DNA of 64,000 nucleotides from Patescibacteria group bacterium (GCA_041659765.1 JBAZXR010000001.1:531338-595337), one strand, 5' to 3'; positions 2,289 to 62,243 are shown, numbered from the stretch's first letter. Notes: generated by a model not told the origin, from the sequence alone. A program made the numbers and translations.

Positions 2289-3734
2289 TTACCAGATGAG
2301 GTCTTTCACGAATGCCTTGAGGGATGAGGCGAGCGAGCGGAACGTCAGGGGCGGTTTCTTGAAGGTGATGTCAATAGCGTGAATGTTCACTCCCCCGTCT
2401 TTTTCTTTCACGAGCGGCGCCGAAAGCACAAACTTGTAGGCTCCCCGTTCTTTGGCCAACGTTCTCAAATCGAATGTCGACGTCGCCACTCGCCAGTCAC
2501 CCTCTTTCATCTGCGGCGGGAAGTACGCGATCAATGCTTTAAAAGCCTCTGGCGCGGCGGTGAAGTTTGTAAACCCCGCGGGCTCTGGCGCGAAAAATAG
2601 CGCGTCAGCAAGCGCAAAGAACCCTTCACCCGTAACCTTCACGCTTCCTCCCGGAAGAATAATCGCCGAGATATCGCGCACTGCAGTGATGCCCGTCCGT
2701 TTGGCGCGCACGGTGTCTAGCGTGATAGGCGTAGCGCCAAAGATCGCGGAACCCAGCGCGTCCGCGGTAAGCGGTTCGACCGCAATCTTCTTAGCGTTTG
2801 TATTGAGAGCGACAGGACCAACATGCGCGGCGAGCGTGATGGAATTCTTAACGACCAGATAATTCTGTTTAGTAGTAAAAGTCGAAAACACCACGTCAGA
2901 CGTCCCCGAGAGCACGATGCGATATACACCTGCCGGCAAACCGTCAGGGGCGATCGTTACAGACTGGAGCGATCCCATTAAACCGTCAGCCGTGGCATTG
3001 CCGTCATCTGCAAATCCTTGTTCGGCAACCATCTCACCGTTCTTTGTGTAGACGCGAATTGCGCCTTCATCGGCACCGACGACTTGGTTCAGGTCAGACG
3101 CGTTAATGGTGATCTTCAGCGTCTCCCCATCTCCAATAGCCGTAAAAAGTTCATGCGGTCCCTGGAGCGAAAGAGAAAAAGTATGTTCTCTCTTTGAGCT
3201 CGTAGCTCCTCTGGGCGGGGCCCAGGGAAGTGCTGCCCGATAAACCCCAATTTCAGAATCCTTAATAGCTGAAGGGTCTGCACCCACAAATTCTTGGCGA
3301 ACAAAGGCATTGATATTTGCTCCGAGCTTGGCGACTGGTCTCCCCGTCCAGCCATTTGCCTCCAGATTTTCAACAACAGTATTAGCGAACGGGCGAAAAT
3401 CAAAAGCCTGAGCAAACAAATCCTTCAGCACGCCAAGCTCAAGGATGGCGTGACTGCCTGTGTTGAACGACAATTTCACGTCAGCCGTCTCCCAACCTCC
3501 TGGTGGAGCAAACACCGAAAAATAGACGGGCTCGTCGAGTAGCTTCACGGATCCATTTTCGACTTTGCCGACTCGCTCGCTCGGTAAAAGCGACTGAATA
3601 AAGGGCGAGGAATCGCCGACCACATAGCGGACCGTCTTCACGCCGGACAGTCCGAGATAATTATAAAGAAGACCGAGGAAGAGGATGATTGGAACGACAA
3701 CAACGCCTATTTTAACGAGCGGTGACTTTTTCAT
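2289..3734 (-). CDS. Hypothetical exported or membrane-anchored protein.
   Basis: Long ORF; signal-anchor MKKSPLVKIGVVVVPIILFLGLL; no recognisable catalytic motif. Lies downstream of the GT-C-like membrane protein. Confidence 0.6.
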   Translation of the reverse strand: MKKSPLVKIGVVVVPIILFLGLLYNYLGLSGVKTVRYVVGDSSPFIQSLLPSERVGKVENGSVKLLDEPVYFSVFAPPGGWETADVKLSFNTGSHAILELGVLKDLFAQAFDFRPFANTVVENLEANGWTGRPVAKLGANINAFVRQEFVGADPSAIKDSEIGVYRAALPWAPPRGATSSKREHTFSLSLQGPHELFTAIGDGETLKITINASDLNQVVGADEGAIRVYTKNGEMVAEQGFADDGNATADGLMGSLQSVTIAPDGLPAGVYRIVLSGTSDVVFSTFTTKQNYLVVKNSITLAAHVGPVALNTNAKKIAVEPLTADALGSAIFGATPITLDTVRAKRTGITAVRDISAIILPGGSVKVTGEGFFALADALFFAPEPAGFTNFTAAPEAFKALIAYFPPQMKEGDWRVATSTFDLRTLAKERGAYKFVLSAPLVKEKDGGVNIHAIDITFKKPPLTFRSLASSLKAFVKDLIW

Positions 3735-5400
3735 GTGAGAATTTATACAGGGACTCTTCATGCATGGTTTCCACAAGCTCGATCTTGAGGCCAAGGGCTT
3801 TCAGTTTATCGCCATTCAGGTAGTCGAGGTCTGCCTGTGGGAACGTAATGCCAAAGTAATACGTTGGCACGTCTTTCACAAGTTCCGGCAGTGCAGCGTA
3901 AGTTTTATCATCGCGCAACGGAACAATTACTCGACGATACGGGAACAAATATTTGTCCGAACGATCAACTACGATCACCGATTCCGGCTCGGTCAAAGTC
4001 ATGATCCGCGCGCGTTTGCCAATGAACGAATCCATCGCGCGACGCGAGGCCAAGATGCCGTCGTGGCCGAAGAAGACGAGGTTTACATTCGCGGTGAGAC
4101 CGGCCAAGACGGCGAGGATGAGGACGAGGCGCGCAAGTACTCGAAGCAACCGTCGCGCACCCTGACCACCCTGAGACTCCCCCGTAGCATCCTCTTTGAA
4201 AGAGGGGGAATTCCCCAATACCCGCCAGAGTGACAACACGAAGTACGCGGCGAAGGGAATGGAGAGCGCGAAAATCGGTAGCCAATAACGGACGTGAGAA
4301 TTACCAATTGTCACCAAGTCGGTGTTTGGATTATCGAAAAAGTTCCAACTGCCATAGAATGCAAACAAAGAGCCTGCGACAAGAATCGAAATCACCGTCA
4401 ATGTTTTCCACGCTTTGTTTTTGTCGAATCTCCGCAGGACAAGGAGCAAGAAACCAAACACCGACGCGATCGTCATCCATGGATACAGCACGATGCCGTA
4501 GTTCCAAACATTGTTCATCACCGCGCGGGGATGAAAACCGAAAGGCGTCGCGGTAGGGGTCGACCCTTGCGTCGACCCTCCTTCGACAGCGATCGCAGGT
4601 GTAGTCGGTGGAATGTTGTACCCCGTCACCAAAGGAGATCCGTAGACCCAAGAATTCGAGGCACCGATAGCCAACCCCATGAGGCCTAACCCAAAAAGAA
4701 AGGACGCGATATTCCGCCAACCAATAATGTTGCGATAGGCGATAAGGAGGCCGAGAGCGATTGGCAAAACCCAGGCGGCTTCGCTCAACCGGAAGAAAAG
4801 TGCGGTGCCGACCATGATTCCCGAAAGCACGAACTCGAGCCGGCGGAATTCTCGAGTAAAGAGTGACCTTGTCCCGAACGGTCGGGCGACGGCAAAGAAC
4901 ACCGCAAAAATCAAGAAGTCGACAAACGCCACGTTGTGCATCATGACGCGCCCAGAAAAATACAAATAGGCGGGATGCGCCATTAGAAACAACGCCGATA
5001 GATCAGCTAATCCGTCATCCTCAAACACTTTCTGCAGGACGGCTCGAAAAGCCAAGACACCTAACAGGGCGAGCACTGGAGTTAATAAGAGTCCGCCGGC
5101 ATCGCCAAAGCCCATCATTAAGACACCGGCTAAAAGTGGCAGACCAAGAAAACTGCCGGGTACTAAAAATTCGCCCATCACCGCTACACTCCGCGGATGA
5201 ATGAGACCGCCAAGTTTTTCATTAAAGGTTTCGTGAACGGCCAAAGAACCAATGTCGGCAAACTGTTTAGCAAAAAAGAAGGCCGCATTTTCATCCGGGG
5301 AAACGAACACTCGCTCGCCGTAGGCGCTCAAGCACAAAGTCGAAACAAAAAAAGAAACAATTATCAGGCCCTTCAAAAAATCCTTTAAAAATCGGCTCAT
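3712..5400 (-). CDS. Polytopic membrane protein, possibly a GT-C fold glycosyltransferase (ArnT/PMT-like).
   Basis: 562 aa with many predicted TM helices and large loops, located in a sugar-nucleotide/glycosyltransferase neighbourhood. Function is inferred, not supported by a motif. Confidence 0.45.
   Translation of the reverse strand: MSRFLKDFLKGLIIVSFFVSTLCLSAYGERVFVSPDENAAFFFAKQFADIGSLAVHETFNEKLGGLIHPRSVAVMGEFLVPGSFLGLPLLAGVLMMGFGDAGGLLLTPVLALLGVLAFRAVLQKVFEDDGLADLSALFLMAHPAYLYFSGRVMMHNVAFVDFLIFAVFFAVARPFGTRSLFTREFRRLEFVLSGIMVGTALFFRLSEAAWVLPIALGLLIAYRNIIGWRNIASFLFGLGLMGLAIGASNSWVYGSPLVTGYNIPPTTPAIAVEGGSTQGSTPTATPFGFHPRAVMNNVWNYGIVLYPWMTIASVFGFLLLVLRRFDKNKAWKTLTVISILVAGSLFAFYGSWNFFDNPNTDLVTIGNSHVRYWLPIFALSIPFAAYFVLSLWRVLGNSPSFKEDATGESQGGQGARRLLRVLARLVLILAVLAGLTANVNLVFFGHDGILASRRAMDSFIGKRARIMTLTEPESVIVVDRSDKYLFPYRRVIVPLRDDKTYAALPELVKDVPTYYFGITFPQADLDYLNGDKLKALGLKIELVETMHEESLYKFSHEKVTAR
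4178..4216. repeat. Palindromic micro-element, family P3 (CCCCGTAGCATCCTCTTTGAAAGAGGGGGAA), lying in-frame inside the CDS at 3712..5400.
   Basis: Near-identical 33-39 bp copy at 10311..10349. Encodes SPSFKEDATGES on the minus strand. Confidence 0.8.
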
Positions 5401-5412
5401 AACGGCCGTATC

Positions 5413-6000
5413 CTACAAGGAATAGGTCACAACTGCAATAAAGGCAAAGACGAGCGAAATCCCGAGCGTTACCTCGCCAAAACTGATCATCCCAGGGTTA
5501 TTCGTCATGATACCAATGAGCAGTACGGTCATGCTCAGCACCTGTAAAATCATCTTTGTTTTGCCCCACCAGTTAGCCATCATGACCACCATCCCGCGTT
5601 TAGTACTGGCCCAAAGAATGGACGGCATGACGTCGAGCACCAGGGCCAGAATGATAATAATCGGATGGTAGTAATTGATCGCGACCAGCAAAGCCGTTCC
5701 ACCGATCAACAGCTTGTCAGCCAGCGGGTCGAAAAATATACCCCACGGAGTAATCTGATTACGGACGCGGGCAAGCGAACCATCAAGTGCGTCAGTGAAG
5801 GCTGCGAAGATAAAAGCTGGAACGGCGAGGGTAAAATAACCCTTCATAAAAAGATAAAAAATGACCGGCGTAAACAACAGCCGGAACGCCGTGACGTAAT
5901 TCGGCTTCACAAAAGCCGGGACAAACGGCAGCACAAGCGCCTTCATCACTTTGTCATGCGGATAGAGCTTTGGGGCTGTAGTTTGCACTGTTTCTTCCAT
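5413..6000 (-). CDS. CDP-alcohol phosphatidyltransferase (PgsA-like).
   Basis: Signature DALDGSLAR(x)8GIFFDPLADK, i.e. D-G-x2-A-R...G-x3-D-x3-D; multi-TM, 195 aa. Confidence 0.8.
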   Translation of the reverse strand: MEETVQTTAPKLYPHDKVMKALVLPFVPAFVKPNYVTAFRLLFTPVIFYLFMKGYFTLAVPAFIFAAFTDALDGSLARVRNQITPWGIFFDPLADKLLIGGTALLVAINYYHPIIIILALVLDVMPSILWASTKRGMVVMMANWWGKTKMILQVLSMTVLLIGIMTNNPGMISFGEVTLGISLVFAFIAVVTYSL

Positions 6001-6019
6001 ACAAGTACCATCATTTTAC

Positions 6020-7990
6020 ATGTTTACCCGCTTTCTTCAAGCCATCATTTCCGCCGGTGCCGCCCTGGCTGTCTTTAGCATTCTAGCCACCGGAATGTAT
6101 TATGTCATGCCGGTAACAACCATCGGCCTGATTGTGTGTGCGGTGGCCGGCTCGGCGATCGTCGCCGTCATCCTGAGGAGCTCCGCGACGAAGGATCTGA
6201 TTGGCAGTGTCATCCCGATAACGGAGGGATCAGAACGGTTACCAATCAGATCCTTCGCTACGCTCAGGATGACTGCATTACTTTCAGTCTCCCTCCTCTC
6301 GCTCGGCCTCTGGTGGCACGCGGTGCTCACACATCCCATTCTCGAATCCGTACGGTCGCCGTGGCTGGTTATCAATTCGGCGAATTTGCTGTGGCTGTTT
6401 ATCCCGGCGGTTTGTGCGGCGGTTTTATTGATAGGAGGACGCGAGGACGGGGCGAGCCCCGTCCGTACAGCCGCGGGGTTCGGTGTAATCGTAATCACGT
6501 TATTTTCCGCGTTGTCATTTGCCGCTGCGGCATATCCCCTCGGTTTCGGTTTTGATCCGTTTCTGCATCGAGCGACCATCCAACATATCGCTGAGCATGG
6601 GACGATCACGCCGAAGCCGCTCTACTACATTGGCGAATATGTGATCGAATTGTTTGCGATGAAGGTGCTCCATTTGCCACTCATGTTGGTCGACGTATTC
6701 TTGGTGCCGCTCTTGGCGGCGACGTTGATTCCGGCGGCGGTGTTTTTGCGGGCGATACGCCAGGGCGGGGCAAGCCCCGCCCCTACCGCGGCGATTTTAT
6801 TATTTCTACCTATCGCCGCATTTGTCCAAACCACACCGCAGGCGTTGGCGTTCGTTTTTACAACGGTCGCGATATTGATCACGCAAAATACAAAAACCGA
6901 CAGCGGGGTTAAAAACCCCGCCTTCCCGATAATCCCATCGATCTTTGCCGTTGCGGCGCTGACCGCGCATCCGATTGCCGGACTCCTCGCCGTCTTCTTC
7001 GTCGTTTTGAATTTCTTGGCCGATAAGAAACGCGCGTGGTTCATCTGGACGTCCGTCTTGGCGACATTCGCCCTTCCCTTTGCATTTATTGCGCAGTCGT
7101 TCAAAGCACATCAGCCTTTTGGCATTCAAATCCCAGGGCTTCACGAAATTGCAGCCCTGCCCCTGTCCTCATTCTTTGGCACGCATTTCAACGCCTGGGG
7201 CGACACGGCGTATTTGGTGATCGGGAACATGTTCCTCGTCACGGTGACGATCGGGATTTTCGGTGCATGGCGAATGCACAAGGGGGCGCCGCAAGGGGCG
7301 TCCGTACGATGGATTCCCTTGATTTGCGCGGGGATTGCGTTTTCGAACTTCTTGATCTTGGGATTATTCTTTGAGTTCCCTTTCTTAATTTCGTACGAAC
7401 GGACGGATTTTGCGGCGCGGATGCTCACCCTGACGGTGTTGTTTTTGATGCCGTATATGCCGTACGCGATGACGCGTGCGAAGGGCGGGGCAAGCCCCGC
7501 CCTTACAGCGCGACGCGCGTTTGGTGTCGCCATTGTCGGCGTTGTATTTGTATCGTCGGTGTACGGCGCGTTCCCACGGTACGACGCATATGCATCTTCA
7601 GCGGGGTTCAATGTGACAAAGGCGGACTTTGACGCCGTTAAGGCCATCGAAGAATACGCCGCCGGACGGGATTACGTCGTTCTTGCGAACCAGGCCACAT
7701 CGTCCGCGGCCATCTCGACTCTCGGTTTCAAAAAATATTATCACGGCGACATCTACTTCTACCCTATCCCCACTGGCGGCCAGCTGTACCAACTCTATCT
7801 CGCCATGGCTGACAAACCGCGTGAAGCGATCATCGACAAAGCTCGTGCACTCACCGGCGCCCAACTGGTCTTCTTCGTCATGGACGATTATTGGTGGGAC
7901 TCCAAACGCGTCGTGGAACAAACAAAAACCATCACGGACATCACCTGGACCTTCGGCGACCACGAGGTGATGGTGATGGTGTTTGAGTAG
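6020..7990 (+). CDS. Large integral membrane protein of unknown function (about 14+ TM helices). Carries four in-frame palindromic micro-elements.
   Basis: 656-aa ORF, strongly hydrophobic, with a soluble C-terminal region. Function unknown; possibly envelope biogenesis or a GT-C-like protein. Confidence 0.7.
   Translation: MFTRFLQAIISAGAALAVFSILATGMYYVMPVTTIGLIVCAVAGSAIVAVILRSSATKDLIGSVIPITEGSERLPIRSFATLRMTALLSVSLLSLGLWWHAVLTHPILESVRSPWLVINSANLLWLFIPAVCAAVLLIGGREDGASPVRTAAGFGVIVITLFSALSFAAAAYPLGFGFDPFLHRATIQHIAEHGTITPKPLYYIGEYVIELFAMKVLHLPLMLVDVFLVPLLAATLIPAAVFLRAIRQGGASPAPTAAILLFLPIAAFVQTTPQALAFVFTTVAILITQNTKTDSGVKNPAFPIIPSIFAVAALTAHPIAGLLAVFFVVLNFLADKKRAWFIWTSVLATFALPFAFIAQSFKAHQPFGIQIPGLHEIAALPLSSFFGTHFNAWGDTAYLVIGNMFLVTVTIGIFGAWRMHKGAPQGASVRWIPLICAGIAFSNFLILGLFFEFPFLISYERTDFAARMLTLTVLFLMPYMPYAMTRAKGGASPALTARRAFGVAIVGVVFVSSVYGAFPRYDAYASSAGFNVTKADFDAVKAIEEYAAGRDYVVLANQATSSAAISTLGFKKYYHGDIYFYPIPTGGQLYQLYLAMADKPREAIIDKARALTGAQLVFFVMDDYWWDSKRVVEQTKTITDITWTFGDHEVMVMVFE
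6446..6470. repeat. Palindromic micro-element, family P1 (GGACGGGGCGAGCCCCGTCCGTACA), in-frame in the CDS at 6020..7990.
   Basis: Perfect palindrome GGACGGGGC-GAGCCCCGTCC. Same core plus the GTCCGTACA flank occurs at 23330..23354. Encodes DGASPVRT. Confidence 0.8.
6764..6783. repeat. Palindromic micro-element, family P1 (GGGCGGGGCAAGCCCCGCCC), in-frame in the CDS at 6020..7990.
   Basis: 20-bp perfect palindrome, identical to the copy at 7484..7503. Encodes GGASPAPT. Confidence 0.85.
6904..6922. repeat. Palindromic micro-element, P2 variant (GCGGGGTTAAAAACCCCGC), in-frame in the CDS at 6020..7990.
   Basis: Same stem as the P2 copies at 14921 and 36941 (GCGGGGTTAATAACCCCGC). Encodes SGVKNPA. 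Confidence 0.7.
7484..7503. repeat. Palindromic micro-element, family P1 (GGGCGGGGCAAGCCCCGCCC), in-frame in the CDS at 6020..7990.
   Basis: Identical to the copy at 6764..6783. Encodes GGASPALT. Confidence 0.85.
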
Positions 7991-8066
7991 GATGGATTGG
8001 TCCTGATCAGGATCCATCCTGAGCGCGAGCGAAGGATCAGACCCTCCCCTCCACCTCAGGAGAGCT
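7991..8066. repeat. Degenerate copy of an intergenic MITE/REP-like element (unit TCCATCCTGAGCGCGAGCGAAGGATC). Overlaps the 3' end of the GIY-YIG gene.
   Basis: Shares the unit with 8431..8455 and, in inverted orientation, with 57283..57311. Also contains the palindrome TCCTGATCAGGA. Confidence 0.7.
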
Positions 8067-8358
8067 CGACGAGCTTCTCAAACAGGTCTTCCCACTTCGG
8101 ATTCTTCGAGGTAACGAGCTCAGCCTTCCTCGCTCGGTTCCATCCCTTCAATTGTTTCTCTCGAAATAATGCCGTGTCTCGATCTGGAGTAGTTTCAAAA
8201 TAGACGAGCTTCACACAGTTATTCTTACTTGCAAATCCAGGCACGAGTTTATCTTTATGTTGCTGAATCCGTTCCGGCAATTGCGTGCTCATCCCAATAT
8301 ACAAAACATTGTTCGTTGGGCTCGCCATGATGTAGACGCCACATGAATCGTCATTCAT
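8056..8358 (-). CDS. Small GIY-YIG nuclease domain protein (URI/YhbQ-like).
   Basis: N-terminal GVYIMASPTNNVLYIGMS (GIY...YIG) and a conserved Glu region in a 100-aa ORF. Flanked on both sides by copies of the palindromic element. Confidence 0.8.
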   Translation of the reverse strand: MNDDSCGVYIMASPTNNVLYIGMSTQLPERIQQHKDKLVPGFASKNNCVKLVYFETTPDRDTALFREKQLKGWNRARKAELVTSKNPKWEDLFEKLVELS

Positions 8359-8377
8359 ACAATGCTTGGAGGTGAAA

Positions 8378-8533
8378 GTCTGACTCTTCGCTCTCGCTCA
8401 GAGTGGGGACCATGATAAATTCTCAAGCATTCCATCCTGAGCCATGCGAAGGATCAAACTTTCACCGGTGAGGGTCGGACTCTTCGCGCTCGCTCAGAGT
8501 GGAGACCGGAATAATTCGCAAGCGATCCATCCT
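8378..8533. repeat. Composite MITE/REP-like palindromic element. Contains a half arm (8382..8406), a full ~73-bp hairpin unit (8431..8503) and a truncated arm (8524..8533).
   Basis: Arms TCCATCCTGAGCCATGCGAAGGATC and GGACTCTTCGCGCTCGCTCAGAGTGGA are mutual inverted repeats. Homologous to 57239..57311 and 7991..8066. Confidence 0.8.
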
Positions 8534-9761
8534 ACCGCCCCACAATCATTCTCTCTTTCCGGTGCTTGATGGCTTCTGCACAAACACGCTCTAGTCGCTC
8601 TGCGTACTTCGGCAGCGAATAGTCGGCGACTGTTTTACTAGTCTCGTCGCGGCGCTGGGCGAATTCGTCCTTGCGTTGATCTAGGATTGTGAGCGCGCGC
8701 AAGAAGTCGCCTCGGTCGCCGGGGATAAACAGGAAGCCGTTTTTACCTTCCTCCACCAGTTCGCCCACGCCGCCAATTCTCGAAGCCAGAATCGGCAAAC
8801 CAGCCTGGAGGCCTTCGTAAATAACCGTTGGAGAATTCTCGTAACACAGGCTCGGCACGACGAGTGCGTCAACAACTCCAAACACGTTCACAATCTCCCC
8901 CGGCGGCATGTAACCCAAGTAAGTGATGCGTTCGTTTTCGCTGGCGTGCTTCTCTGTCCACTTTCTGAGCACCCCGTCACCCGCAATCATGAGGCGCGCA
9001 TCAATCGGCAAGGTCGAAATAGCGTCGACCAAAAAGGCTAGACCCTTATGCTGGGCGAGCTGGCCCACGAACAAAAGTTTCAGCGGTCCGCCAGAACGGC
9101 CTTTCTTTGGCGAAATATCATAGGTCGGTGCCGGGTTAGGCATCACCTCAATGTTAGTACCCGTGAAAAAGCCGGACCGGCGATACATGCGCTCAAGATA
9201 ATGCGACGGCGAAATAACGACGTCCGGATTCTTAAATTTAGCGCGACAAAAAAGCTGGTACACCTTATAGAACGGTTTAATGAACCACGGCGTCTGCTCT
9301 TTACCGAACATGACGAGGCCGGAGGGAACGATAAGCTGCAAATCGTGAATCACGTGCACATGCGGAATCTTCATCTGACGCATGACCTTCGGAATAGACA
9401 GGCCGAGTCCTTTTAGGTTATGCGTAATGACCACGTCCGGCTGTTCATTAACCATAACCTTGCGCACCACCTCCGCTCCATGTCCAGAGAAGCCGTCTAT
9501 TAGATGCCAAAATAATCTGATGAGCCACGGATATTTATAATCGTTCAACGTGAAGTACAAATTGCGCGGATAAAAACGATAAACACGCTCAACCGTTGAG
9601 CGATCCAAAATAATTCCCCTCCCTTCAGAGCGCGGCTGGCCGGTAATCACAAACACGTCATGTCCACGAGCCAGGAGTTCCTGGACCGTGCGAACAATGA
9701 CCGTTTCAGCTCCCCCGCGGGCGTGGGGCGGATAGAGATTTGTAATGATTCCTATCTTCAT
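8532..9761 (-). CDS. Glycosyltransferase family 4 (GT4).
   Basis: 409 aa. N-terminal MKIGIITNLYPPHARGGAETV and a C-terminal GT4 (GT-B) EX7E-like region. Confidence 0.8.
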   Translation of the reverse strand: MKIGIITNLYPPHARGGAETVIVRTVQELLARGHDVFVITGQPRSEGRGIILDRSTVERVYRFYPRNLYFTLNDYKYPWLIRLFWHLIDGFSGHGAEVVRKVMVNEQPDVVITHNLKGLGLSIPKVMRQMKIPHVHVIHDLQLIVPSGLVMFGKEQTPWFIKPFYKVYQLFCRAKFKNPDVVISPSHYLERMYRRSGFFTGTNIEVMPNPAPTYDISPKKGRSGGPLKLLFVGQLAQHKGLAFLVDAISTLPIDARLMIAGDGVLRKWTEKHASENERITYLGYMPPGEIVNVFGVVDALVVPSLCYENSPTVIYEGLQAGLPILASRIGGVGELVEEGKNGFLFIPGDRGDFLRALTILDQRKDEFAQRRDETSKTVADYSLPKYAERLERVCAEAIKHRKERMIVGR

Positions 9762-10834
9762 ACCTTGAGTACTCCGTTATACGCCTGGAGCAATTGGCGT
9801 GCAATAGCCCCGCTGTCATACCTTTCCATAACACGTACGCGAGCGGCTGAGCCCATGATTACTGCGTCTTCTGGGCGATCGGCGAACTTCTGAAGCTGGT
9901 ACGCCAAATCATCTACGTCACCAGGTTTGGCGAGGTAGCCCGTACGGCCTTTTTCGACGAGTGTCCTGACGCCAGGAAGGTCGCTGACAACCGAAGGCAG
10001 GCCTGAAGCAGCGGCCTCGAGGGTGACGAGACCGAAGGCTTCCCCGCCGTTAATGCTCGGCAGTACGTGCACATCTGCAGAGCGATAGACGTTCGGCAGT
10101 TCTGTGTCTGACACGCGACCGAGAAATTTCACGCGGTCGGCGATCATCAAGTCAGAGGCGAGGCGCTCGTAGAATGCCTTGAGGTCGCCATCGCCGGCAA
10201 TCACGAGTCGGGCACTCGGCGCAAGTTTAGCGAAGGCACGCAGAAGAATATCCACGCCTTTGAAGTCGTGCGCTTTGTCGAGGCCGCCGACGAAGAGGTA
10301 GACCACCGACTTCCCCGTAGCCCCCTCTTTGAAAGAGGGGGAACACGCCACACCCGGCGCGAAGCGCGTGCTGTCCACGCCGAAAGGCATTTCGGTCAGG
10401 CCGTCGTGAGAGAGACCGGAGGCTTCTGCGTACTCAAGCGAGCTCACGAAAATCTTTTTGGCGATGAGAAAAATAAATGGTTCGATGAACCAACGATGCA
10501 AGGTAAAAATAACGTTGCGCCAATCCTTTGTCACGGCCTTCATGTGATACGTGAGTACAAGAGGCGTTTTGTGAATTATCGACGCGAGCACAGCAAACAC
10601 GTCCATGCCGTAACACGGATAGTGAACGTGGATCACGTCGAAGCCTTTCAGCTTCATGACAAGTGACGGCATCAACGCTGCGTTGCCGTACGCAAAGAGT
10701 GACTTGGTCGTGCTCGGCTCAAAAACGACCACATCATGGCCAAGGGCTTTAAGAGCGTTGGTCTGGGCTTCGGCAACATGTCCAATACCCCCCTTATAAG
10801 GAGGGAAAACTGCGGAAACGACAGCAATTCGCAT
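9758..10834 (-). CDS. Glycosyltransferase family 4 (GT4). Start probably MRIAVVS; carries an in-frame P3 palindromic element.
   Basis: MRIAVVSAVFPPYKGGIGHV...; the C-terminal GT4 fold is retained. ATGA overlap with the upstream GT4 gene. Confidence 0.75.
   Translation of the reverse strand: MRIAVVSAVFPPYKGGIGHVAEAQTNALKALGHDVVVFEPSTTKSLFAYGNAALMPSLVMKLKGFDVIHVHYPCYGMDVFAVLASIIHKTPLVLTYHMKAVTKDWRNVIFTLHRWFIEPFIFLIAKKIFVSSLEYAEASGLSHDGLTEMPFGVDSTRFAPGVACSPSFKEGATGKSVVYLFVGGLDKAHDFKGVDILLRAFAKLAPSARLVIAGDGDLKAFYERLASDLMIADRVKFLGRVSDTELPNVYRSADVHVLPSINGGEAFGLVTLEAAASGLPSVVSDLPGVRTLVEKGRTGYLAKPGDVDDLAYQLQKFADRPEDAVIMGSAARVRVMERYDSGAIARQLLQAYNGVLKV
10311..10349. repeat. Palindromic micro-element, family P3 (CCCCGTAGCCCCCTCTTTGAAAGAGGGGGAA), in-frame inside the GT4 CDS.
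   Basis: Near-identical to 4178..4216. Encodes SPSFKEGATGKS. Confidence 0.8.
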
Positions 10835-12897: not shown

Positions 12898-14979
12898 TTA
12901 CCAAGCTCCAAGTGAAGTGCCCAAAGAGCCGATAAGTTTAGAGCCAAGTGTGCCCATTATATTCCCATGCGAAGTAAAAACCTGTACTTCACCGGCGCCA
13001 TGTTCTGGGGCCACCACAATATCCTCTTTACCGTCTACATCTATGTCTGAAACGGCTACCACCGCGCCGGTTTTAGAAGATTGATCACCCACCCAGAACT
13101 GTCCCCATACCGCACCAATCTTGTTAAAGATGCGGATATTGGAGGCCCCTGGCGCACGCGGGGCGGTCACAATCTCGTCTCGATCGTCGCCGTCAAAGTC
13201 GCCGGACGACAGTGAGATGCCATAAGTCATGGTTGGCGCATATGCCAAGAAATCCACCAAAGCTTTTCCATCATTATCATACACGGCTACACGGGGGATT
13301 CCAGACAAGGCGCCAAACACCATTTCTTGATCATAGTCCTCATCAATGTCAGCCACCGTGGCGGTGAGCGGAGTGTCGGCGGCGAACCCGACCACCGGAA
13401 ACCGGAATTTCTCTACACCATCTTGGCCGAACACCACAGCATCAGTGCTGACTCCGGCCCCAACCACGGCTACAATGTCATCCGAAAAATCCCCGTCCAC
13501 ATCACCCAGGGCCACAGAGACTCCTTGTCTTGTTTTCTCATCAAAAGCAAAGAACGAACGAATGAGTGCGCCAGTAGCGGTGAAAATTCGTATCTGTGGA
13601 CCGCCGCCTTTTCCAGCCGAAGCAATAACCTCAGGAACACCATCGCCCGTCAGATCAGCCAGGCCCACCCGAACACCGCCCAGAAAAGTTGGCGCAAAAA
13701 CATAGAACTCTGCATATGGCGTACCGTCAGCCTTATATACTCTGACGTTCGGCGGCTCGCCAGGCGCTGCGCCGAGGGCAATAAACGAATATGCCGAATC
13801 TCCAGTCAAACCGCCACTACTCGCCGCTGGCGGCTTAGTGGTTGAAGGAATTGGCGCAACTGGGAGTGGTCCGGCCGGGGCGGTGCCCGCCAATGATTGA
13901 GCCACGGATAGCGCGCGAGCGATATTCAATCGGCCGACGCCTAGCGAACCCGGACCAGATAAGGTCACTTTCACCGGGTCAACCGACAGCTTGATGGCAG
14001 TCCTGACTTGATCAACCGTCAGCGTTGGGAAAGCTGAAAGCATCAAGGCGGCGGCTCCGGCCACCATTGGGCTAGCGGCGGACGTGCCATCCCAAGAAAG
14101 CTGGGTACCAAATAATCCAGTGTCTCCGTCACTCAAAGTTAAACCCTGAATATTCGTGCCGGGCGCGCTTAAATCCGCACAGGCGTTTCCAAAATTAGTG
14201 AATTCAGTTTCAGAATCACTCTCGTCAGTAGCGGCCACGCCGATCACCCAATCCTCCGTTTCTGATCTGAAACAGGCCGGGTAGACCGGCGAGCTGTTCA
14301 CATCCCTTCCATCATTCCCGAGCGCGGCCGTAATGGTCACCCCGGCATGATAAGCATCAATCACCGCCTGCCGCAAAGCCGAACCAGACACGTCCCCCAC
14401 AAAACTGAGATTAATTACTTTCGCCCCATTTTTCACCGCGTAACGAATAGCGCTGGTCGCCTCCTCTTCTCCCCCGCCGCCTTGTTCATCTAAAATTCTG
14501 AGCGGCATGATACGAACGTGCCAATTAATTCCCGCGTAACCAATACTATTATTCGTGGCTGCTCCAATAATGCCGGAGATCAGAGTTCCGTGCGATGTAG
14601 CAAGCGCTGAAGAATTCGCGTCCGGAATAGTCCCCTTGGGAACCGGAGAATTGTCATGATCCACAAAATCCCAACCTTCGACATCATCAACATATCCGTT
14701 CCGATCATCATCCAGGCCATTGCCCGGAATCTCATTAGTGTTCTTCCAAAGATTGTGGACTAAATCTGGATGATCAAGATCCACCCCAGTATCAAGAACG
14801 GCCACGATCACCGAGCCATCACCGACCGACGTATCCCAAGCGGCCTCAACATTAATCAGGCGCAAGTACCACTGCTCAGCAAGATATGGATCGTTCGGGG
14901 TTTTTGCCAAGACGCACAAAGGCGGGGTTAATAACCCCGCCATCACAAAACAGATCGCGACGTTCCCAAGAAAGCGCAT
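12898..14979 (-). CDS. Secreted subtilisin-like (S8) serine protease with C-terminal FG-GAP/VCBS-like repeats.
   Basis: Catalytic triad blocks DTGVDLDHPDL, HGTLISGIIGA and GTSAASPMVAGAAAL. C-terminal repeats of the DxDGDGxxD type (LADLTGDGVPEVI etc.). Signal peptide present. Confidence 0.85.
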   Translation of the reverse strand: MRFLGNVAICFVMAGLLTPPLCVLAKTPNDPYLAEQWYLRLINVEAAWDTSVGDGSVIVAVLDTGVDLDHPDLVHNLWKNTNEIPGNGLDDDRNGYVDDVEGWDFVDHDNSPVPKGTIPDANSSALATSHGTLISGIIGAATNNSIGYAGINWHVRIMPLRILDEQGGGGEEEATSAIRYAVKNGAKVINLSFVGDVSGSALRQAVIDAYHAGVTITAALGNDGRDVNSSPVYPACFRSETEDWVIGVAATDESDSETEFTNFGNACADLSAPGTNIQGLTLSDGDTGLFGTQLSWDGTSAASPMVAGAAALMLSAFPTLTVDQVRTAIKLSVDPVKVTLSGPGSLGVGRLNIARALSVAQSLAGTAPAGPLPVAPIPSTTKPPAASSGGLTGDSAYSFIALGAAPGEPPNVRVYKADGTPYAEFYVFAPTFLGGVRVGLADLTGDGVPEVIASAGKGGGPQIRIFTATGALIRSFFAFDEKTRQGVSVALGDVDGDFSDDIVAVVGAGVSTDAVVFGQDGVEKFRFPVVGFAADTPLTATVADIDEDYDQEMVFGALSGIPRVAVYDNDGKALVDFLAYAPTMTYGISLSSGDFDGDDRDEIVTAPRAPGASNIRIFNKIGAVWGQFWVGDQSSKTGAVVAVSDIDVDGKEDIVVAPEHGAGEVQVFTSHGNIMGTLGSKLIGSLGTSLGAW
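14921..14946. repeat. Palindromic micro-element, family P2 (GGCGGGGTTAATAACCCCGCCATCAC), lying in-frame within the signal peptide of the S8 protease.
   Basis: Identical core plus ATCAC flank at 36941..36965. Encodes MAGLLTPP. Confidence 0.85.
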
Positions 14980-15803: not shown

Positions 15804-18764
15804 TCACTGTACGGTAGCTGCCCCGATCCACGCTTCGGTGAACCCGACCAGGTCAGTGGCCGTGACGCCACCGGCGCAGAGGACGAACCCTTCGGTCGTA
15901 TTCCCAGCGGTCAGCCAGGTCACCACCTGCCGATCCGTACCGGCAAGCACGGTCGACGTCGAGTAGAGCTCTGTAGCGGCCACATGATCAACCACGTAGT
16001 CAGACAACCGATACACTCGGAGGATCTGTCCGTTGGTCGACGACTGGTTAGCGTAGTCGAACGTCATGGCGTACTTGTTCCCTACGCCCGCGGTAAAGGT
16101 GTACGCACGACACTCGTCCGCAATACCGGCCGCACCACCAGTGTTGTCAAAGTACGCAGCGTTCCGCGTACTCCCGAGCGTGGTGGTGAAAGCGAGCGGT
16201 CCAGTAGGTCCCCAAGTGGAGGGTCGACCGAGCGTGTACGAGTACGTCGTCCAACTTGAGAGCGCCCCGCACCCCATCGTCACGTCACACGAGTTGCCAA
16301 TGAGGTTCGGTCCCGTGAACCGAGCGACGAGCGCGCTGCCGGAAACTGCAAAGGTGGTCACTCCGTCCGTGTGGGCAAAGGTACCGTCACAGTTGTCATC
16401 AGACGCCGTCTTGGACGACTCCGCCACGCCCGGGTGGACGAACGGCGCACGGTCGTCACAGTCACCGGCGGCCGAAGCGTAGCCAACGGGCGCACTGCAC
16501 GCTTGCTTGGTTGGCGCAGATGTTCCGTACCCATCAGCGTCAAGGTCCTGGAAGAATGTCGGCATAACGCCTTCGTCAATCCCGGACCCGCAGTTGTTGT
16601 CTACCCCGTCGCAGACCTCTACGGCCCCGGGGTTCACGAACTTGTCAGTGTCATTGCAGTCCGTCGAGACGCTGGCGAACCCGGCCGGAGCCGAGCAAGC
16701 AGCAATAGTCGACGTCGGAATTCCGTACGCGTCTCCGTCACCATCCTGGTAGTAGGTGTTCTTCACGCCTTCGTCAACTGCAGTATCGCAGTCATCGTCG
16801 GCCCCGTTGCACGCCTCAGCGGCCACGGGATTGATCAGGCTCTTCGTGTCGTCGCAGTCCGTGCTGTTGGCTGCGAAGCCGACGGGCAGGCTGCAGGCGA
16901 GCGTGGTGACGAGCACGTTGCCGTACTGATCACCGTCTGTATCCGCGAAGTAAGTGTTCTTCACGCCTTCGTCAATTCCGCCTTCGCAGTCGTCGTCCAC
17001 CCCGTTACAGACTTCCGTCTTCCCGGGATTTACGCCGCTCTTGGCGTCATCGCAGTCAGTCGCGTTGAGCACATAACCCGCGGGCGGGCTGCACTGACTG
17101 ACGGATTTGGAGCTGTCCCCATAACCGTCATTGTCACTGTCCCGATAGTACGTGGCACTGCCAGTGGCGCCGTTATCCACGGAGCCGTCGCAGTTGTCGT
17201 CCTTACCGTTGCAGACTTCCGTTCCGGCAGGGCTGACGAGCGCAGTTGCGTCATCGCAGTCCGTGGAGGCGGCTACATACCCGGCCGGAGCCGAGCACGC
17301 TTTGGTCGAGGTGACTCCCCCGTACCCATCTTTGTCGCCATCCAAGTACCACGTCTTTGCGTCAGCAGCGTTGTCGTCGATCTTGCCATCGCAGTTATCG
17401 TCGAGACTGTTGCACACCTCCGTGGCGCTCGGGTTCACAGACTTGCTCGCGTCGTTGCAGTCGCTCTCATTGGCCACGTACCCGGCGGGCGGCGTGCAGG
17501 CTTCCGTAGAAGTCCCGCCGCCAAACCCGTCACCGTCCGTGTCCTTGTAGAACGTCAGCAAGACGCCTTGATCGATGACGCCGTCACAGTCGTCATCACG
17601 GTCGTTGCAGACTTCGCTCTCGTCCGGGTTAACGGCCGGACGGGCGTCATCGCAATCACCGTTCACGAGCGTGTACCCGGCCGGAGCCGAGCACGCCTGT
17701 TTGAACACGTCAGAACCGTAGTTGTCCTTGTCCGTGTCCTGGTAGAACGCGATGAGCGTCCCTTCGTCGATCCCATCCGCGCAGTTGTTGTCCACCCCAT
17801 CGCACACCTCTGTGGCGGCAGGGTTGACCTCAAACGCAGAGTCGTCGCACTCGAGACAAGCAAAGAAGCCGTCTCCGTCACCGTCCTCTGCGCCGTAAAA
17901 GCCGTCGCAGTTGAGGTCCTCCGGGTCCGTGCAACTCTCGGCCGCACCCGGATAGACTGCGGCATTCCCGTCATCACAATCCTTACTCTGGGCTGCGTAC
18001 CCTTCCGGCATCTCACAGGCCAGAATCTGACCAGACTTGCTGTTCGTACCAACTCCGTCCTGGTCAGCGTCCTTGTAGAACTTGTCCTGACCGATCACGG
18101 AAGCGTCTTCGTCGTCCACGAGCAAGTCGCAGTCGTTATCAATGAGGTCGCAGACCTCCTGTGCGACCGGATTGACGGTGGGGTTGTTGTCATCGCAGTC
18201 AACAAAGCCATCGAACCCGTCTTCGTCATCGTCTTTGATCTCCACCTCCGTCGTCTTGCCGTCGCAGTTCCGGTCGACACCGTCGCCAGGAAAGTCAGGA
18301 ATACTCGGGTTGATGTCAGGATCCGTGTCATCGCAGTCATCGGCGTTGTACACGAGTCCCTCAACTCCGTAGACCTCACAGCCCCAGAGCTCGGCACTGC
18401 CGTCTCCAAAACCATCACTATCTTTGTCCGCGTAGCGCGGCAAACGCTGATCGCTGCCCGCGTCTCCCTCCTCGCAGTCATTATCAATCCCGTCACACGG
18501 AATTTCCTCGACTGCCGGGAGGTCATTCTCCTCATCGGTATCACCATCCCAAACGTTCGGGTGAACCAACGCGTCATTGTCGTCGCAGTCATCAATTTCC
18601 ACGAAGAATCCATCGCCGTCCGCATCAACTAGCGGAATGTGATCCGGCAGGATCAACGCGCAACCAGAGAACATGAACGAAGCCATAACCAAACAGTTGC
18701 TGTAACGCATTGAAGCACCCCTAAAAGCTGTGGCTTGATAGCCGTTTTCGTAACTCAAGGCCAA
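15804..18764 (-). CDS. Large secreted Cys-rich protein with about 13 tandem MopE-like putative metal-binding repeats (CxDxDxxVNPxAxEVCNGxDDDCDGxxDEG). Lipoprotein-like signal peptide; the likely start is at an internal Met near 18710.
   Basis: Strongly periodic repeats are visible in both DNA and protein. The antisense 753-aa ORF is an artefact of the GC-rich repeats. Confidence 0.8.
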   Translation of the reverse strand: MALSYENGYQATAFRGASMRYSNCLVMASFMFSGCALILPDHIPLVDADGDGFFVEIDDCDDNDALVHPNVWDGDTDEENDLPAVEEIPCDGIDNDCEEGDAGSDQRLPRYADKDSDGFGDGSAELWGCEVYGVEGLVYNADDCDDTDPDINPSIPDFPGDGVDRNCDGKTTEVEIKDDDEDGFDGFVDCDDNNPTVNPVAQEVCDLIDNDCDLLVDDEDASVIGQDKFYKDADQDGVGTNSKSGQILACEMPEGYAAQSKDCDDGNAAVYPGAAESCTDPEDLNCDGFYGAEDGDGDGFFACLECDDSAFEVNPAATEVCDGVDNNCADGIDEGTLIAFYQDTDKDNYGSDVFKQACSAPAGYTLVNGDCDDARPAVNPDESEVCNDRDDDCDGVIDQGVLLTFYKDTDGDGFGGGTSTEACTPPAGYVANESDCNDASKSVNPSATEVCNSLDDNCDGKIDDNAADAKTWYLDGDKDGYGGVTSTKACSAPAGYVAASTDCDDATALVSPAGTEVCNGKDDNCDGSVDNGATGSATYYRDSDNDGYGDSSKSVSQCSPPAGYVLNATDCDDAKSGVNPGKTEVCNGVDDDCEGGIDEGVKNTYFADTDGDQYGNVLVTTLACSLPVGFAANSTDCDDTKSLINPVAAEACNGADDDCDTAVDEGVKNTYYQDGDGDAYGIPTSTIAACSAPAGFASVSTDCNDTDKFVNPGAVEVCDGVDNNCGSGIDEGVMPTFFQDLDADGYGTSAPTKQACSAPVGYASAAGDCDDRAPFVHPGVAESSKTASDDNCDGTFAHTDGVTTFAVSGSALVARFTGPNLIGNSCDVTMGCGALSSWTTYSYTLGRPSTWGPTGPLAFTTTLGSTRNAAYFDNTGGAAGIADECRAYTFTAGVGNKYAMTFDYANQSSTNGQILRVYRLSDYVVDHVAATELYSTSTVLAGTDRQVVTWLTAGNTTEGFVLCAGGVTATDLVGFTEAWIGAATVQ

Positions 18765-25537: not shown

Positions 25538-28500
25538 ATGAGAAAGCTGCTTCGTTCGGGATTCATAGCAACACTCTGTGTGCTCGCAACTACCCTGCCG
25601 GTGCGTGCGATAGAACAAGACAGTTCGCCGTTTATCGCATCCACACCAGTTCGTGTTGCTCCAGAAGACTCTTCGGGGTCTTTTTCATATTCCTATCCCA
25701 TCTCCGTTCCACCCGGACGCAATGCCATGCAGCCAAACATTTCGCTATCTTATAACAGCGGCGTCGCGGATGACGCTAGTATTACGGGCTACGGCTGGAG
25801 CCCCTCAATCCCAAAGATTGAGCGGGTCAACAAACGCGGGGTCGACAAGCTTTACAACAGACACGACTTCACTTCTTCGCTTGGCGGAGAGCTGGTCGAC
25901 GTATTGTTGTCCGATGGTTCGCACGGAACCTATGCGGTCAAAGTCGAAAATGGAAATTTCCTTACCTACGTTTACAACACGAACGAAACCTGGACGGTGA
26001 CGGACATGCTTGGCACGCAATACACCTTCGGCGGGAGCAGCAACTCGCGGGTCATTGACCCTGCCAACAGTTCTCACGTCTTCTCTTGGTACCTCACAGA
26101 AACTCGTGACACGAATGACAACGTCGTCACCTACTCATATTCCAGTACCAATAACCAGGTTTATCCGAGCAACATTAACTATACTGGACACGCCAACACT
26201 GCCGGTATTTTTGACATCGCCTTTACTCTGGAAGCAAGCTCGACCACAAACGAATCATTCGCCACGGGATTCTCTGTAAAAACCGGCCAGCGAATTTCCG
26301 CGATTACCGTAAAAGTGAATAATACAAATGTTCGTATCTACGACATTAACTATACGGTCGGAGACAACACCACCCGACCGCTTCTTTCAAGTATCACAGA
26401 GACCGGGATAGACGAGGCTAGCAACAGCATCACTAAACCCGCTACCACGTTTACATATTCCGCAAGCCACCGGACCTGGACGGAAGATACGACTGCCTCT
26501 ATTCCTATTGCCATAGCGGCAGGAGGCGCGTCTAGCATCGGCACGTTTGTCTTTGATGTAAATGGAGATTCGCTGCCAGACATCGTAAAATCATTAATAA
26601 TTGACAACGGCGGCACGCCCATCATTGAACGTGGAGTATATCTGAACGATGGAAATAACAACTGGGTAGAAGATGCAGGCTACACCATTCCAGTCTATTT
26701 CGCTGGTAATGGCTATGACCAAGGCGTGCGCATCGCCGATTTTAACGGTGACGGCTATCAGGACATTTTGAAAGCGCGGAGAGATCAGAACACCGGTGTT
26801 TTATACAGCGAAGTCTATATCAACGATGGCGATGGAACTGGGTGGACCCAAGATACTACAGTTGTCATTCCTACAGCCTTTGATAACTCAACAAGGATTT
26901 TTGATGTGAACGGAGATGGTCTTCCTGATATTGTCTATGGACGAATGAATCAATGGACAGCTGCGATCGAGAGCGAGTTCTACATCAACAATGGCGACGG
27001 AACTGGCTGGACCCTGGATGGAAATTATGTACTGCCGATAAACATTTCCACTGAAAAGGGAAAAGATGCGGCGTTCCGAACGGCCGACGTCAACGGCGAT
27101 GGGTTAACAGACCTCCTGCAAGCCGTATCAACAACCAACGAGGTCTATATCAATAAGGGGAACGGAACTGGGTGGATCAAAAACACCAGCTACGTCATTC
27201 CCGCAACCTTCCTCGCGACAGGAAAAGATACCGGCACGCGGCTTCTTGATATTAACGGAGATGGTCTCACGGACGTCTTCCACTCTCGTCTTGACTCAAC
27301 AGGAAACCCTGAAAGCAACCTCTACATCAACCGGGGAGGAGAGGAGGGATGGGTTGAAGATACAAACTTTCAAGGAGCGCCGGTCGCCATGACTACCAGC
27401 GCTGGCGCTGACCGTGGCGTCCGAGAAGATAATTTCTCTGGATCGATGTTGACGGACTTCATGCACTCCGTTAGAACCGGAACGCCCGAGGTTCTCTATA
27501 CCTACCTGTTCGTCCAAGACGGAGGCAGGGGCGATCTTCTAACTAGCGTCTCATCAACAAGCGGAGCGACGACAGATGTAGCCTACACCTCTTCCACCGT
27601 TCCCAACCCCTCACTTCCTTTCTCTCTTCAAGTTGTCGATACCATCACGACGGATGACGGATTCGGGAATGTTTCAACGCAATCTTATACATACGAAAAT
27701 GGTTCATTTTACTACAACAATGAATACGACAGAAAGTTCGCTGGGTTCGGAAAAGTAACGACAACGGACGGGCTTGGAAATGTGACGATTAGCTATTACC
27801 ATCAGGGAAATACTTCGGACTCCGCTCATGGCGAAGCAACGGATGACGTCAGCAAGCTCCTACATCGCTATCGCGAAGAACAATACGACAGTAATGGAAA
27901 CCTCTATCGCACGACAATTGACACGTGGGTTAATACTGACATCGGAAATGGCAGAGACTTTGTCTACAAAACGCAGACACTGGTCATGGACTACGATGGT
28001 GATGCCGATCACCGGGATACTGCCGTTCGGTATACATACAATACGAACAACGGAAACCTCGTTGAGAAAATCGAGTATGGTCTTGGCACTGGAAACGATA
28101 ACGGATCCTTTACGGATTCTGGCACGGATGATCGGACGACTGCCTACGCCTACGCGCAGTGGACGAGCGGTGAATCCGGCTACCTGGCCTCCGAAACGCT
28201 CACGGATCATGTCATTGACACCATTCGCCGAACTACCAGGTTCTATGACGGGAACACGACTAACGCCGTAAGCATTGGCAACGTTACGCGAGAGGTGAAA
28301 AAGATTTCGGCTACTGAAAATGCGGAAACAAACTTCGCCTATGACGCGTATGGTTTCCGTACGGCAGTGATTGATGCAAATGGCAATACTACAACCATTA
28401 CTCCCGACGCAGTGGAACTCTATCCGGCGAGCGTCACAAACGATCTCAGTCAAGTCACTGAGTACGTCTATGATTACTCGTCAGGCAAGGTTATAGAGAC

Positions 28501-31609: not shown

Positions 31610-31639
31610 TCCACCAAACACAAAACCACCCTCATGATC

Positions 31640-62136: not shown

Positions 62137-62243
62137 ATTTCATCAAACATTTTACCACATCCCGGGGTTGTTCGGCATCCGTTAACGTGATACGATGGAC
62201 GCCGAACGAGGGTCGACACCTGGGTCGACCCCTACCTCAAAAT

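Follow-up and report, generated by a model that had tools for sequence, protein, structure and literature searches.

How does nearly the same short DNA sequence come to lie, in frame, within two functionally unrelated genes? The question is raised by a 64,000-nt stretch from a Patescibacteria group bacterium (GCA_041659765.1, JBAZXR010000001.1:531338-595337; hereafter the window), in which a GT4 glycosyltransferase gene and the gene of a GT-C-like polytopic membrane protein each carry one copy of a palindromic element, here termed P3. P3 has been copied as DNA into many unrelated genes, and the surviving copies seen in these gene-dense genomes are in frame, free of stop codons, and situated in interdomain linkers or loops. 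The two sites in the window are probably dispersed solo copies of a repeat class known as BoxC, PIT elements, or TM motifs (BoxC/PIT/TM), with a nuclease of the DUF559 family as the candidate partner enzyme.

Copies of P3 in the window and in related genomes

The common core of the two sites (4178-4216 and 10311-10349) is CCCCGTAGC[A/C][T/C]CCTCTTTGAAAGAGGGGGAA, in which 31 of 33 nt are the same, and a repeat search of the window yields a longer pair, of 43 nt with 86% identity (4175-4217 and 10308-10350; family D17). With as many as 2 mismatches allowed, a 15-nt core is matched 5 times where 0.18 matches would be expected, a count that none of 100 shuffles reaches. An nhmmer profile built solely from copies in other genomes, with the window copies excluded, recovers both sites on the minus strand (10302-10351, E = 2.6e-15; 4169-4217, E = 4.7e-12) and no third site anywhere in the 64-kb window. 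An earlier reading of the window from its sequence alone (the sequence-only reading) had described two near-identical sites of a 33- to 39-bp element; the pair is confirmed, but the extent of the profile matches shows a unit of about 50 to 57 nt. Both copies lie in minus-strand open reading frames (ORFs), share one codon phase, and translate as SPSFKEDATGES and SPSFKEGATGKS. The in-frame reading in two unrelated proteins, which had also been proposed, holds as well: the GT4 protein is identified by Pfam (PF00534, 6.8e-38, and PF13692) and is 100% identical to MFA5946962.1 from a Patescibacteria metagenome-assembled genome (MAG), and the membrane protein, itself without a Pfam match, is assigned through homologues, some of which bear PF13231 (PMT_2, GT-C).

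The shared peptide might be a conserved or convergent protein motif, such as a flexible linker selected as a peptide, with no inserted DNA. The P3 peptide is short and rich in Ser, Pro, Gly, and Glu, which is linker-like, and 9 of 11 independent copies share one frame (SPSF[QK]EG..). However, in an alignment of 25 GT4 homologues with 46 to 83% identity, SPSFKEGATG is found in none. Distant homologues have the usual LRxxxG linker helix, equal in length to the query segment, and the closest ones (75 to 83% identity) have other palindrome-derived peptides, such as PPYEGGG and SPVGRSTPEG, or a shorter linker at the same spot. Among the orthologues of the membrane protein, a single one (72% identity) shares the element, as SPSFQEGARG in the same place, and distant homologues lack the whole loop in the alignment. 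The DNA of this orthologue (L001) is TTCCCCCTCTTTCCAAGAGGGGGCCAGGGGGAGTC, and its K-to-Q change sits in the hairpin loop. As the peptide is missing from orthologues, it is not a conserved motif, in agreement with the insertion that the sequence-only reading had favored. In addition, the 31 identical nucleotides of the window copies include third codon positions in unrelated genes; the element is read antisense in an ABC-F and an IscU-like protein; the related elements of L002 and P0246 are read in another frame; and upstream of DUF559 the element is present as DNA that is not translated. In the GT4 orthologue of L002, the related element is TTCCCCCTCCTTACGAAGGAGGGGGCCAGGGGGTGGTC, read as PPPYEGGGQG and followed by a second palindrome. 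The similarity between copies lies at the DNA level and not at the peptide level, and a protein motif is a highly improbable explanation.

In the membrane protein, the element occupies a variable loop downstream of the W..P.F motif helices. In the AlphaFold2 model of the GT4 protein (mean predicted local distance difference test score [pLDDT], 88), residues 171 to 190 form a coil of low confidence (pLDDT, 65 to 69) between the two Rossmann domains, which bears out the loop position expected of the insert. The checks suggested in the sequence-only reading come out in favor of insertion, with the refinement that the GT4 copy has taken the place of the ancestral linker with no added length.

In a scan for the exact core with one genome per species, 6 copies were found in the Patescibacteria MAG JBAZWW01, 2 were found in "Candidatus Uhrbacteria" CAWGHH01, and others were scattered; the retrieved portions of JBAZWW01 hold at least nine P3 copies. 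P3 lies in frame in at least nine other unrelated genes of related genomes, where hosts were counted solely if Pfam confirmed them, long-ORF calls in high-GC metagenome contigs being deemed an unreliable guide to whether a copy is genic or intergenic. The hosts are MnmA and an RluA-type pseudouridine synthase (L007), PheT (L008), Ddl (L011), LeuRS (L012), an ATP-citrate-lyase-like protein with three tandem units (L015), a CopA-type P-ATPase with a second palindrome nested within the element (L019), an ABC-F ATPase (L017), and a NifU_N/IscU protein with two tandem units (L004). The copies in the ABC-F and NifU_N/IscU genes are read antisense and translate as DSPVAPSWKEGE. Mapped domain boundaries place the insertions between domains or in loops. 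The independent insertions comprise nine in the sense and two in the antisense orientation, and the remaining stop-free frames, which would give FPLFPRGGYGGV and PPLSKRGLRGS, are never used. A recurring process that places hairpin-forming DNA into ORFs while preserving the frame had been proposed for the window; insertion is upheld, and the simplest reason for the intact frame is that insertions of this kind survived, rather than that a frame-aware mechanism placed them.

P3 had also been likened to two other palindrome families of the window, P1 and P2, and this likeness is borne out in a 656-amino-acid membrane protein gene (ORF 6020-7990; Table 1). Its L002 orthologue is without two of the four palindromes, with gaps of 8 and 12 amino acids; the remaining two sites are occupied by a P2-like GVNNPAF and, at a position that is P1 in the window, a triplex-type PPSYEEGGQGG. 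The presence of different families at matching sites in orthologues indicates that palindrome families re-use the same codon positions. In addition, nested palindromes occur at the junction of the hairpin and loop 2 in L019 and L143. The elements nest and are replaced at fixed sites.

Architecture of P3 and other repeats of the window

On the coding strand, P3 consists of an inner flank (TCAGGRTGGGCG), TT, a pyrimidine arm (CCCCCTCTT), a 3-nt loop, a purine arm (AAGAGGGGG), and the second loop CTAC, followed by another block of purines, GGGGGAG(TC), which forms a mirror image of the purine arm (G facing G, A facing A or T), and an outer flank (TCAGGGTGG or GGTGGTC). The long consensus from relatives is (TCAGGRTGGGCG) TT CCCCCTCTT TCC AAGAGGGGG CTAC GGGGGAGTC (TCAGGGTGG or GGTGGTC), and in these relatives AAGAGGGGG-CTAC-GGGGGAG obeys the triplex rule fully. 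A looser pattern, TTCCCCCTC-N5-11-GAGGGGG-N4-GGGG, returned at least 129 elements from metagenomes. Among the 129 matches listed, the hairpin, a 3-nt YYA loop, and a purine block mirroring the 3' arm are constant throughout, as in GGAGAGGGGG-TCA-GGGGGTGAGG, AAGGAGGGGG-CTA-GGGGGAGGTT, and TAAGAGGGGG-TTA-GGGGGAGTTA. With the G-run that the pattern itself dictates set aside, 87% of the arm and third-strand positions in these elements pair as G:G or A:A/T, against a mean of 75% and a maximum of 79% for permuted partners (200 permutations) and 38% for shifted registers. In addition, the GT4 copy in the window and the element of its L002 orthologue differ by one additional C in arm 1, one additional G in arm 2, and one additional G in the third strand, all three occurring jointly. 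By sequence rules, this three-block layout with covariation follows the code of an intrastrand DNA triplex of the purine motif.

In the GT4 copy, the 9-bp stem (CCCCCTCTT/AAGAGGGGG) is perfect, the loop has 3 nt, and the DNA minimum free energy (MFE) z score is -2.1 to -2.75; this copy is recovered by an 8-nt triplex-motif scan with 1 mismatch, for which 30 shuffles give 0 matches. Its two flanks agree with the terminal repeats of the DUF559 cassette described below and with other solo copies. The stem of the membrane-protein copy is down to 6 bp, with an MFE z score of about 0, and the copy now fails the triplex-motif scan; its ...GGGGGAGTCTCAGGGTGG tail is the same as in the copies of relatives, and the hairpin is intact, with 9 bp, in the L001 orthologue. 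Rfam at the gathering threshold, applied to the window and nine loci, matched tRNAs alone and no family for P3, and a scan of viral contigs gave a single partial chance match without the third strand. The 35-amino-acid peptide of the window matched one spurious leucine-rich repeat protein among 1.84 billion protein representatives, a search for which the query is too short.

By the ITxF criteria (PMC4666352), a BoxC/PIT/TM repeat has a pyrimidine arm and a complementary purine arm at least 6 to 8 nt long with at most 1 mismatch around a loop of 1 to 6 nt, and the stem of the GT4 copy has this form. Its third block follows at the distance typical of the class, a loop of 1 to 6 nt, with the G.G, A.A, or T.A triads of class II. 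The copies are also dispersed, with two in the 64-kb window and at least nine in the retrieved parts of JBAZWW01. The sites are best regarded as solo copies of a lineage-specific member of this class. TMECO in the strict sense (CCCTCNCCC N3-6 GGGNGAGGG N3 GGGNGAGGG) was ruled out, as the arms of P3 are CCCCCTCTT/AAGAGGGGG and its loop 2 has 4 nt; P3 would belong to the same class as TMECO but to a different family. A miniature inverted-repeat transposable element with a target-site duplication was also rejected: the apparent direct repeat TCAGGRTGG on either side recurs in every host gene and at the cassette ends and is therefore a part of the element, not a duplicated target.

The plus strand of the window copies, on which GTAG and one further base precede a 6- to 9-bp hairpin with a 3-nt loop, resembles GTAG-tagged repetitive extragenic palindromic (REP) elements moved by RAYT, a Y1 HUH transposase, in which case the purine tail and the vicinity of DUF559 would be incidental. 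Intragenic REPs are on record in tRNA synthetase and pseudouridine synthase genes (PMC3733652), and CTAC also stands behind two other hairpin families of the window. The tag itself is GTAG in the two copies of the window and in the majority of close relatives, but CCAG/CTGG occupies its position in L001, L002, and L141, TTAC does so in L007 (close relatives having CCAG or GTAA), and TAA, TGA, or TAG is found in the wider family, where the position is the variable loop (TTA, TCA, CCA, CTA). Because the tag position varies across the family, the resemblance to REPs is treated as one of architecture, not of membership. Moreover, the third block covaries with the stem, which is not required of REPs, and the gene bracketed by the repeats is DUF559 and not a Y1 transposase, although no profile search for Y1_Tnp or RAYT was made. 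Descent from RAYT-moved REPs is considered quite unlikely, and membership of the BoxC/PIT/TM class is the preferred assignment.

Table 1. P3 copies, their host genes, and other repeats in the window
Feature	Position	Strand	Description
Host gene 1, GT4 glycosyltransferase	9758..10834 (ORF to 10870)	-	Annotated 358-aa product MFA5946962.1
P3 copy in GT4 gene	10301..10357	-	Solo element, predicted triplex hairpin, coding PGVACSPSFKEGATGKSVV
GT4 copy, flank	10301-10307		GACCACC on + strand
GT4 copy, third strand	10308-10316		GACTTCCCC on + strand
GT4 copy, loop 2	10317-10320		GTAG on + strand
GT4 copy, hairpin	10321-10341		9-bp stem, 3-nt loop
GT4 copy, inner flank	10342-10357		AACACGCCACACCCGG on + strand
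Host gene 2, polytopic membrane protein, GT-C/PMT_2-like	3712..5400	-	562 aa, from translation and homologues
P3 copy in GT-C-like membrane protein gene	4155..4217	-	Coding NSPSFKEDATGESQGGQGA
Membrane-protein copy, two flank repeats	4155-4174		GCGCACCCTGAC and CCACCCTGA on + strand
Membrane-protein copy, third strand	4175-4183		GACTCCCCC on + strand
Membrane-protein copy, GTAG	4184-4187		GTAG on + strand
Membrane-protein copy, decayed hairpin	4191-4205		6 bp
Further hairpin family	4557-4578 (in ORF 3712-5400); 62210-62231		GGGTCGAC-N6-GTCGACCC
Membrane protein gene with P1 and P2	6020-7990	+	656 aa
P1 copies in ORF 6020-7990	6445-6464; 6763-6782; 7481-7504		Read (E/Q/K)(D/G)GASP..TA
P2 copy in ORF 6020-7990	6903-6921		Reads SGVKNPAF
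P2-type palindromes near ORF starts	14921-14941; 36941-36959; 34694-34712; 55381-55399		GCGGGGTTAATAACCCCGC; 10-20 codons into ORFs, MAGLLTP(P/L)
Repeat of 48-76 nt	8371-8418; 8467-8514; 57275-57322; also 8431-8506 / 57239-57314		GGTGAAAGTCTGACTCTTCGCTCTCGCTCAGAGTGGGGAC..., internal inverted symmetry
Surface-protein genes with internal repeats	16525-18440; 26806-27270; 29258-29493; 29856-30155 / 31634-31933		Large genes

Several other repeats of the window are listed in Table 1. Behind the copy of the further hairpin family at 4557-4578 comes CTACCGCG, as in P1 (GCCCCGCCC-CTAC-CGCG), and the copy translates as GGSTQGSTPTAT in a second variable loop of the membrane protein that hosts P3; this family and P1 may be REP-like elements with a GTAG tag, separate from P3. 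The four P2-type palindromes early in ORFs may be parts of signal peptides, or the true start codons may be downstream of them. The GGTGAAAGTCTGACTCTTCGCTCTCGCTCAGAGTGGGGAC repeat is apparently intergenic beside the GT4 operon and occurs again 49 kb away. One region of the large surface-protein genes has Asp/Cys-rich units with a period of about 198 nt, a nearby subtilase has FG-GAP units, YD-like units are also present, and a 300-nt segment is duplicated 1.8 kb apart with 97% identity.

The DUF559 gene and its flanking repeats

DUF559 proteins are YcjD-like nucleases with a Vsr/PD-(D/E)XK fold. In JBAZWW01 (L011), a DUF559 gene (PF04480, E = 5.5e-29; PDB 3HRL, E = 6e-15) lies between two inverted P3 elements, with the third strands facing outward, and its ORF continues through the right-hand element in the frame of the solo copies (SPSFQEGATGES), ending in ...RSPSFQEGATGESQGG. 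The closest homologues of this protein (69% and 53% identity; L140 and L141) are found in the same cassette, with the same read-through into the right-hand element, at the same syntenic locus, which in the three genomes has a gene ending in ...DPFEGEE on one side and a convergent rlmH on the other. Such repeats adjoin every DUF559 gene examined, with flanking copies in L011, L140, L141, and four further Patescibacteria loci (L142 to L145) and at the E. coli gene ycjD; the PF04480 E values range from 5.5e-29 to 5.6e-45. Among 139 loci (856 kb) selected by the hairpin pattern alone, 7 DUF559 motifs were found, all 150 to 315 nt from a hairpin. All four of the DUF559 genes chosen by protein homology alone (L142 to L145, from Woesebacteria, Giovannonibacteria, Nomurabacteria, and one other) are flanked by hairpin-plus-mirror-tail motifs. 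Of the 17 triplex motifs in these seven loci, 13 fall inside the 150 nt next to the DUF559 gene, and this zone covers about 14% of the sequence. The C-terminal peptides of about half of the sampled DUF559 proteins are of a type usual where translation runs into a C-rich arm.

In E. coli K-12, the DUF559 gene ycjD ends in ...RRSPSP inside a degenerate motif that overlaps its stop codon. Between ycjD and fabI (NC_000913, 1351040-1351830; L146), this degenerate motif comes first, next about 60 nt that remain of another DUF559 3' end, and last a perfect TMECO (GGGAGAGGGTTAGGGTGAGGGG). Across 5,426 E. coli genomes, the ycjD-fabI spacer has a median of 13 matching places per genome, and it is kept at full length in only 3,345 of them.

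Two further findings bear on the relation between the cassette and the solo copies. The pair flanking DUF559 is of the same sequence variant as the solo copies of that genome, and the variants differ among genomes. In addition, the solo copies share about 12 to 15 nt with the DUF559 coding region at its 3' end; the solos thus look derived from cassette ends. In the proposed scheme, DUF559 would nick the hairpin or triplex structure, seeding the copying of a cassette end into new sites, and existing elements would be preferred landing sites, which would explain both the nesting and the turnover of families at fixed codon positions. Such a scheme would parallel that of the RAYT transposases and the REP/REPIN repeats.

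The repeats may instead have spread by other means, such as slippage, template switching, or recombination, with DUF559 as a selfish or homing nuclease that targets the repeats, lodges between them, or uses them as regulators or terminators. The DUF559 cassette is inherited vertically at a syntenic locus, the second DUF559 3'-end remnant near ycjD lies beside repeats, and Holder et al. tie the motifs to local rearrangement without any mobility gene (PMC4666352). A whole DUF559 unit with both hairpins also lies within a LeuRS gene in L080, as if it had entered an existing element. The stretch of DUF559 3' coding sequence in the solos argues against such a spread, as does the match between the DUF559-flanking variant and the solo variant of each genome, a RAYT/REPIN-like mark of a dedicated partner. 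This alternative is therefore judged unlikely, and dispersal of solo copies with DUF559 as the putative partner enzyme is retained as the preferred account.

A number of points weigh against the preferred account. No DUF559 gene is present in the 64-kb window, and neither rlmH nor the upstream neighbor gene of the cassette was found there. No protein from the source contig is among the best 120 DUF559 homologues, which is not conclusive, and the source genome may lack a DUF559 gene. The cassette locus is conserved and syntenic, so that the nuclease gene itself does not look mobile, and its flanking repeats could be regulatory or could merely accumulate at DUF559. Neither a transposition event nor a target-site duplication nor an empty/filled polymorphism was seen, and mobility is thus deduced from the distribution of copies only. 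Both window copies are partly decayed (a 6-bp stem in the membrane-protein copy and a third-strand mismatch in the GT4 copy), which indicates that a structure-dependent role is not maintained here, and triplex formation by the P3 sequence is predicted only. Finally, the strong frame bias (nine sense, two antisense) is explained solely by a selection argument, according to which the frame giving the most benign peptide would be favored.

Three observations on related loci are recorded here. In L080 (39-3380; metagenome, Bacteroidota-like LeuRS), the DUF559 domain is complete (PF04480, 1.7e-34), has a triplex hairpin on each side, and lies in frame just ahead of the LeuRS editing domain; it is non-intein and apparently translated with the enzyme. 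In L145 (1856-3319), a head-to-head triplex doublet (PPPLTKGRIEEG...DPHPASPLSRGR) links GATase and TatD domains in one 487-amino-acid ORF, which may be a gene fusion that arose from in-frame repeats in a former spacer. Outside Patescibacteria, superfamily members in L084, L052, and L024 are apparently in frame as judged from ORF translations, the listed hosts being the interdomain linker of a Der/EngA-like GTPase (an inverted doublet), a DnaE-type polymerase, and an RsmB-like methyltransferase.

Comparison with known repeat systems

The kind of element (BoxC/PIT/TM) and the in-frame insertion of palindromes (as in Rickettsia palindromic elements [RPEs] and intragenic REPs) are already known. 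Relative to the literature searched, the residence of this class within translated genes of Patescibacteria, essential ones included, and the re-use of sites by different palindrome families are new, as is the association with DUF559, which offers a candidate for the missing partner enzyme. A search for in-frame palindromes in Patescibacteria or the candidate phyla radiation found nothing specific, and one on DUF559, ycjD, and triplex follow-ups found no paper connecting the nuclease with the repeats. The locus shows that the class can reside inside coding sequence, in relatives within the genes of LeuRS, PheT, MnmA, Ddl, and other core proteins, much as RPEs do. P3 supplies Patescibacteria proteins with loop insertions specific to their lineage, which calls for practical caution in annotation and in alignment-based phylogeny. 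The bracketing of DUF559 provides a concrete candidate enzyme that is testable in E. coli (ycjD) and bears on an uncharacterized, very widespread protein family.

Yeast mitochondrial mobile GC clusters and the very small dispersed repeats of cyanobacteria are likewise short, G/C-rich palindromes that enter coding regions with the frame intact, and they adjoin free-standing endonuclease ORFs; their hosts and sequences differ from those of P3, and we know of no triplex architecture described for either.

BoxC/PIT/TM repeats were recognized about 30 years ago and have no known function. The class was named BoxC, then PIT elements, and then TM motifs (Holder et al. 2015, PMC4666352), and the same paper cites earlier descriptions (Bergler 1992; Hoyne & Maher 2000). 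P3 shares with the class the pyrimidine arm, the complementary purine arm, and the mirrored purine third strand, with loops of 3 to 7 and 3 to 4 nt, as well as the G/C richness, the many dispersed copies per genome, and the local turnover of sequence; the E. coli copy beside ycjD has the same arrangement of gene and repeat. In E. coli K-12, the 23 TMECO copies are reported to be always intergenic, and genetic-mobility activities to have never been found near TM motifs (PMC4666352), whereas the P3 copies are intragenic and translated. The sequences also differ (CCCTCNCCC in TMECO, CCCCCTCTT in P3), P3 has CTAC as loop 2 and additional conserved TCAGGRTGG flanks, and its hosts belong to a Patescibacteria lineage, unlike the described hosts of the class (E. 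coli, cyanobacteria, and others).

In behavior, P3 is similar to RPEs (Ogata 2000, 2002, as summarized in PMC10969869). According to that summary, RPEs are selfish palindromes of about 100 to 150 bp that lie in frame in unrelated and often essential genes of a small, gene-dense genome and encode a family-specific peptide where the fold tolerates it; as described there, they differ from P3 in having neither a triplex third strand nor a flanked partner gene. Membership of P3 among RPEs was rejected: its unit of about 50 to 57 nt has another architecture, no sequence relationship was seen, and the behavior alone is alike.

The GTAG-REP/REPIN-RAYT system (PMC3733652; Nunvar 2010; Ton-Hoang 2012) resembles P3 in its hairpins of 20 to 40 nt with an unpaired tetranucleotide, in a single-copy, vertically inherited nuclease gene between two inverted copies, in the occurrence of solos, doublets, and clusters, and in occasional in-frame copies within tRNA synthetase and pseudouridine synthase genes. 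P3 differs in that it brackets a DUF559 gene of the PD-(D/E)XK fold, in its variable tag, and in its covarying third strand. It is conceivable, though somewhat short of probable, that DUF559/YcjD-type nucleases are dedicated partner enzymes of BoxC/PIT repeats from E. coli to Patescibacteria, forming a non-HUH counterpart of RAYT-REPIN whose site-reusing elements write peptides into essential Patescibacteria proteins.

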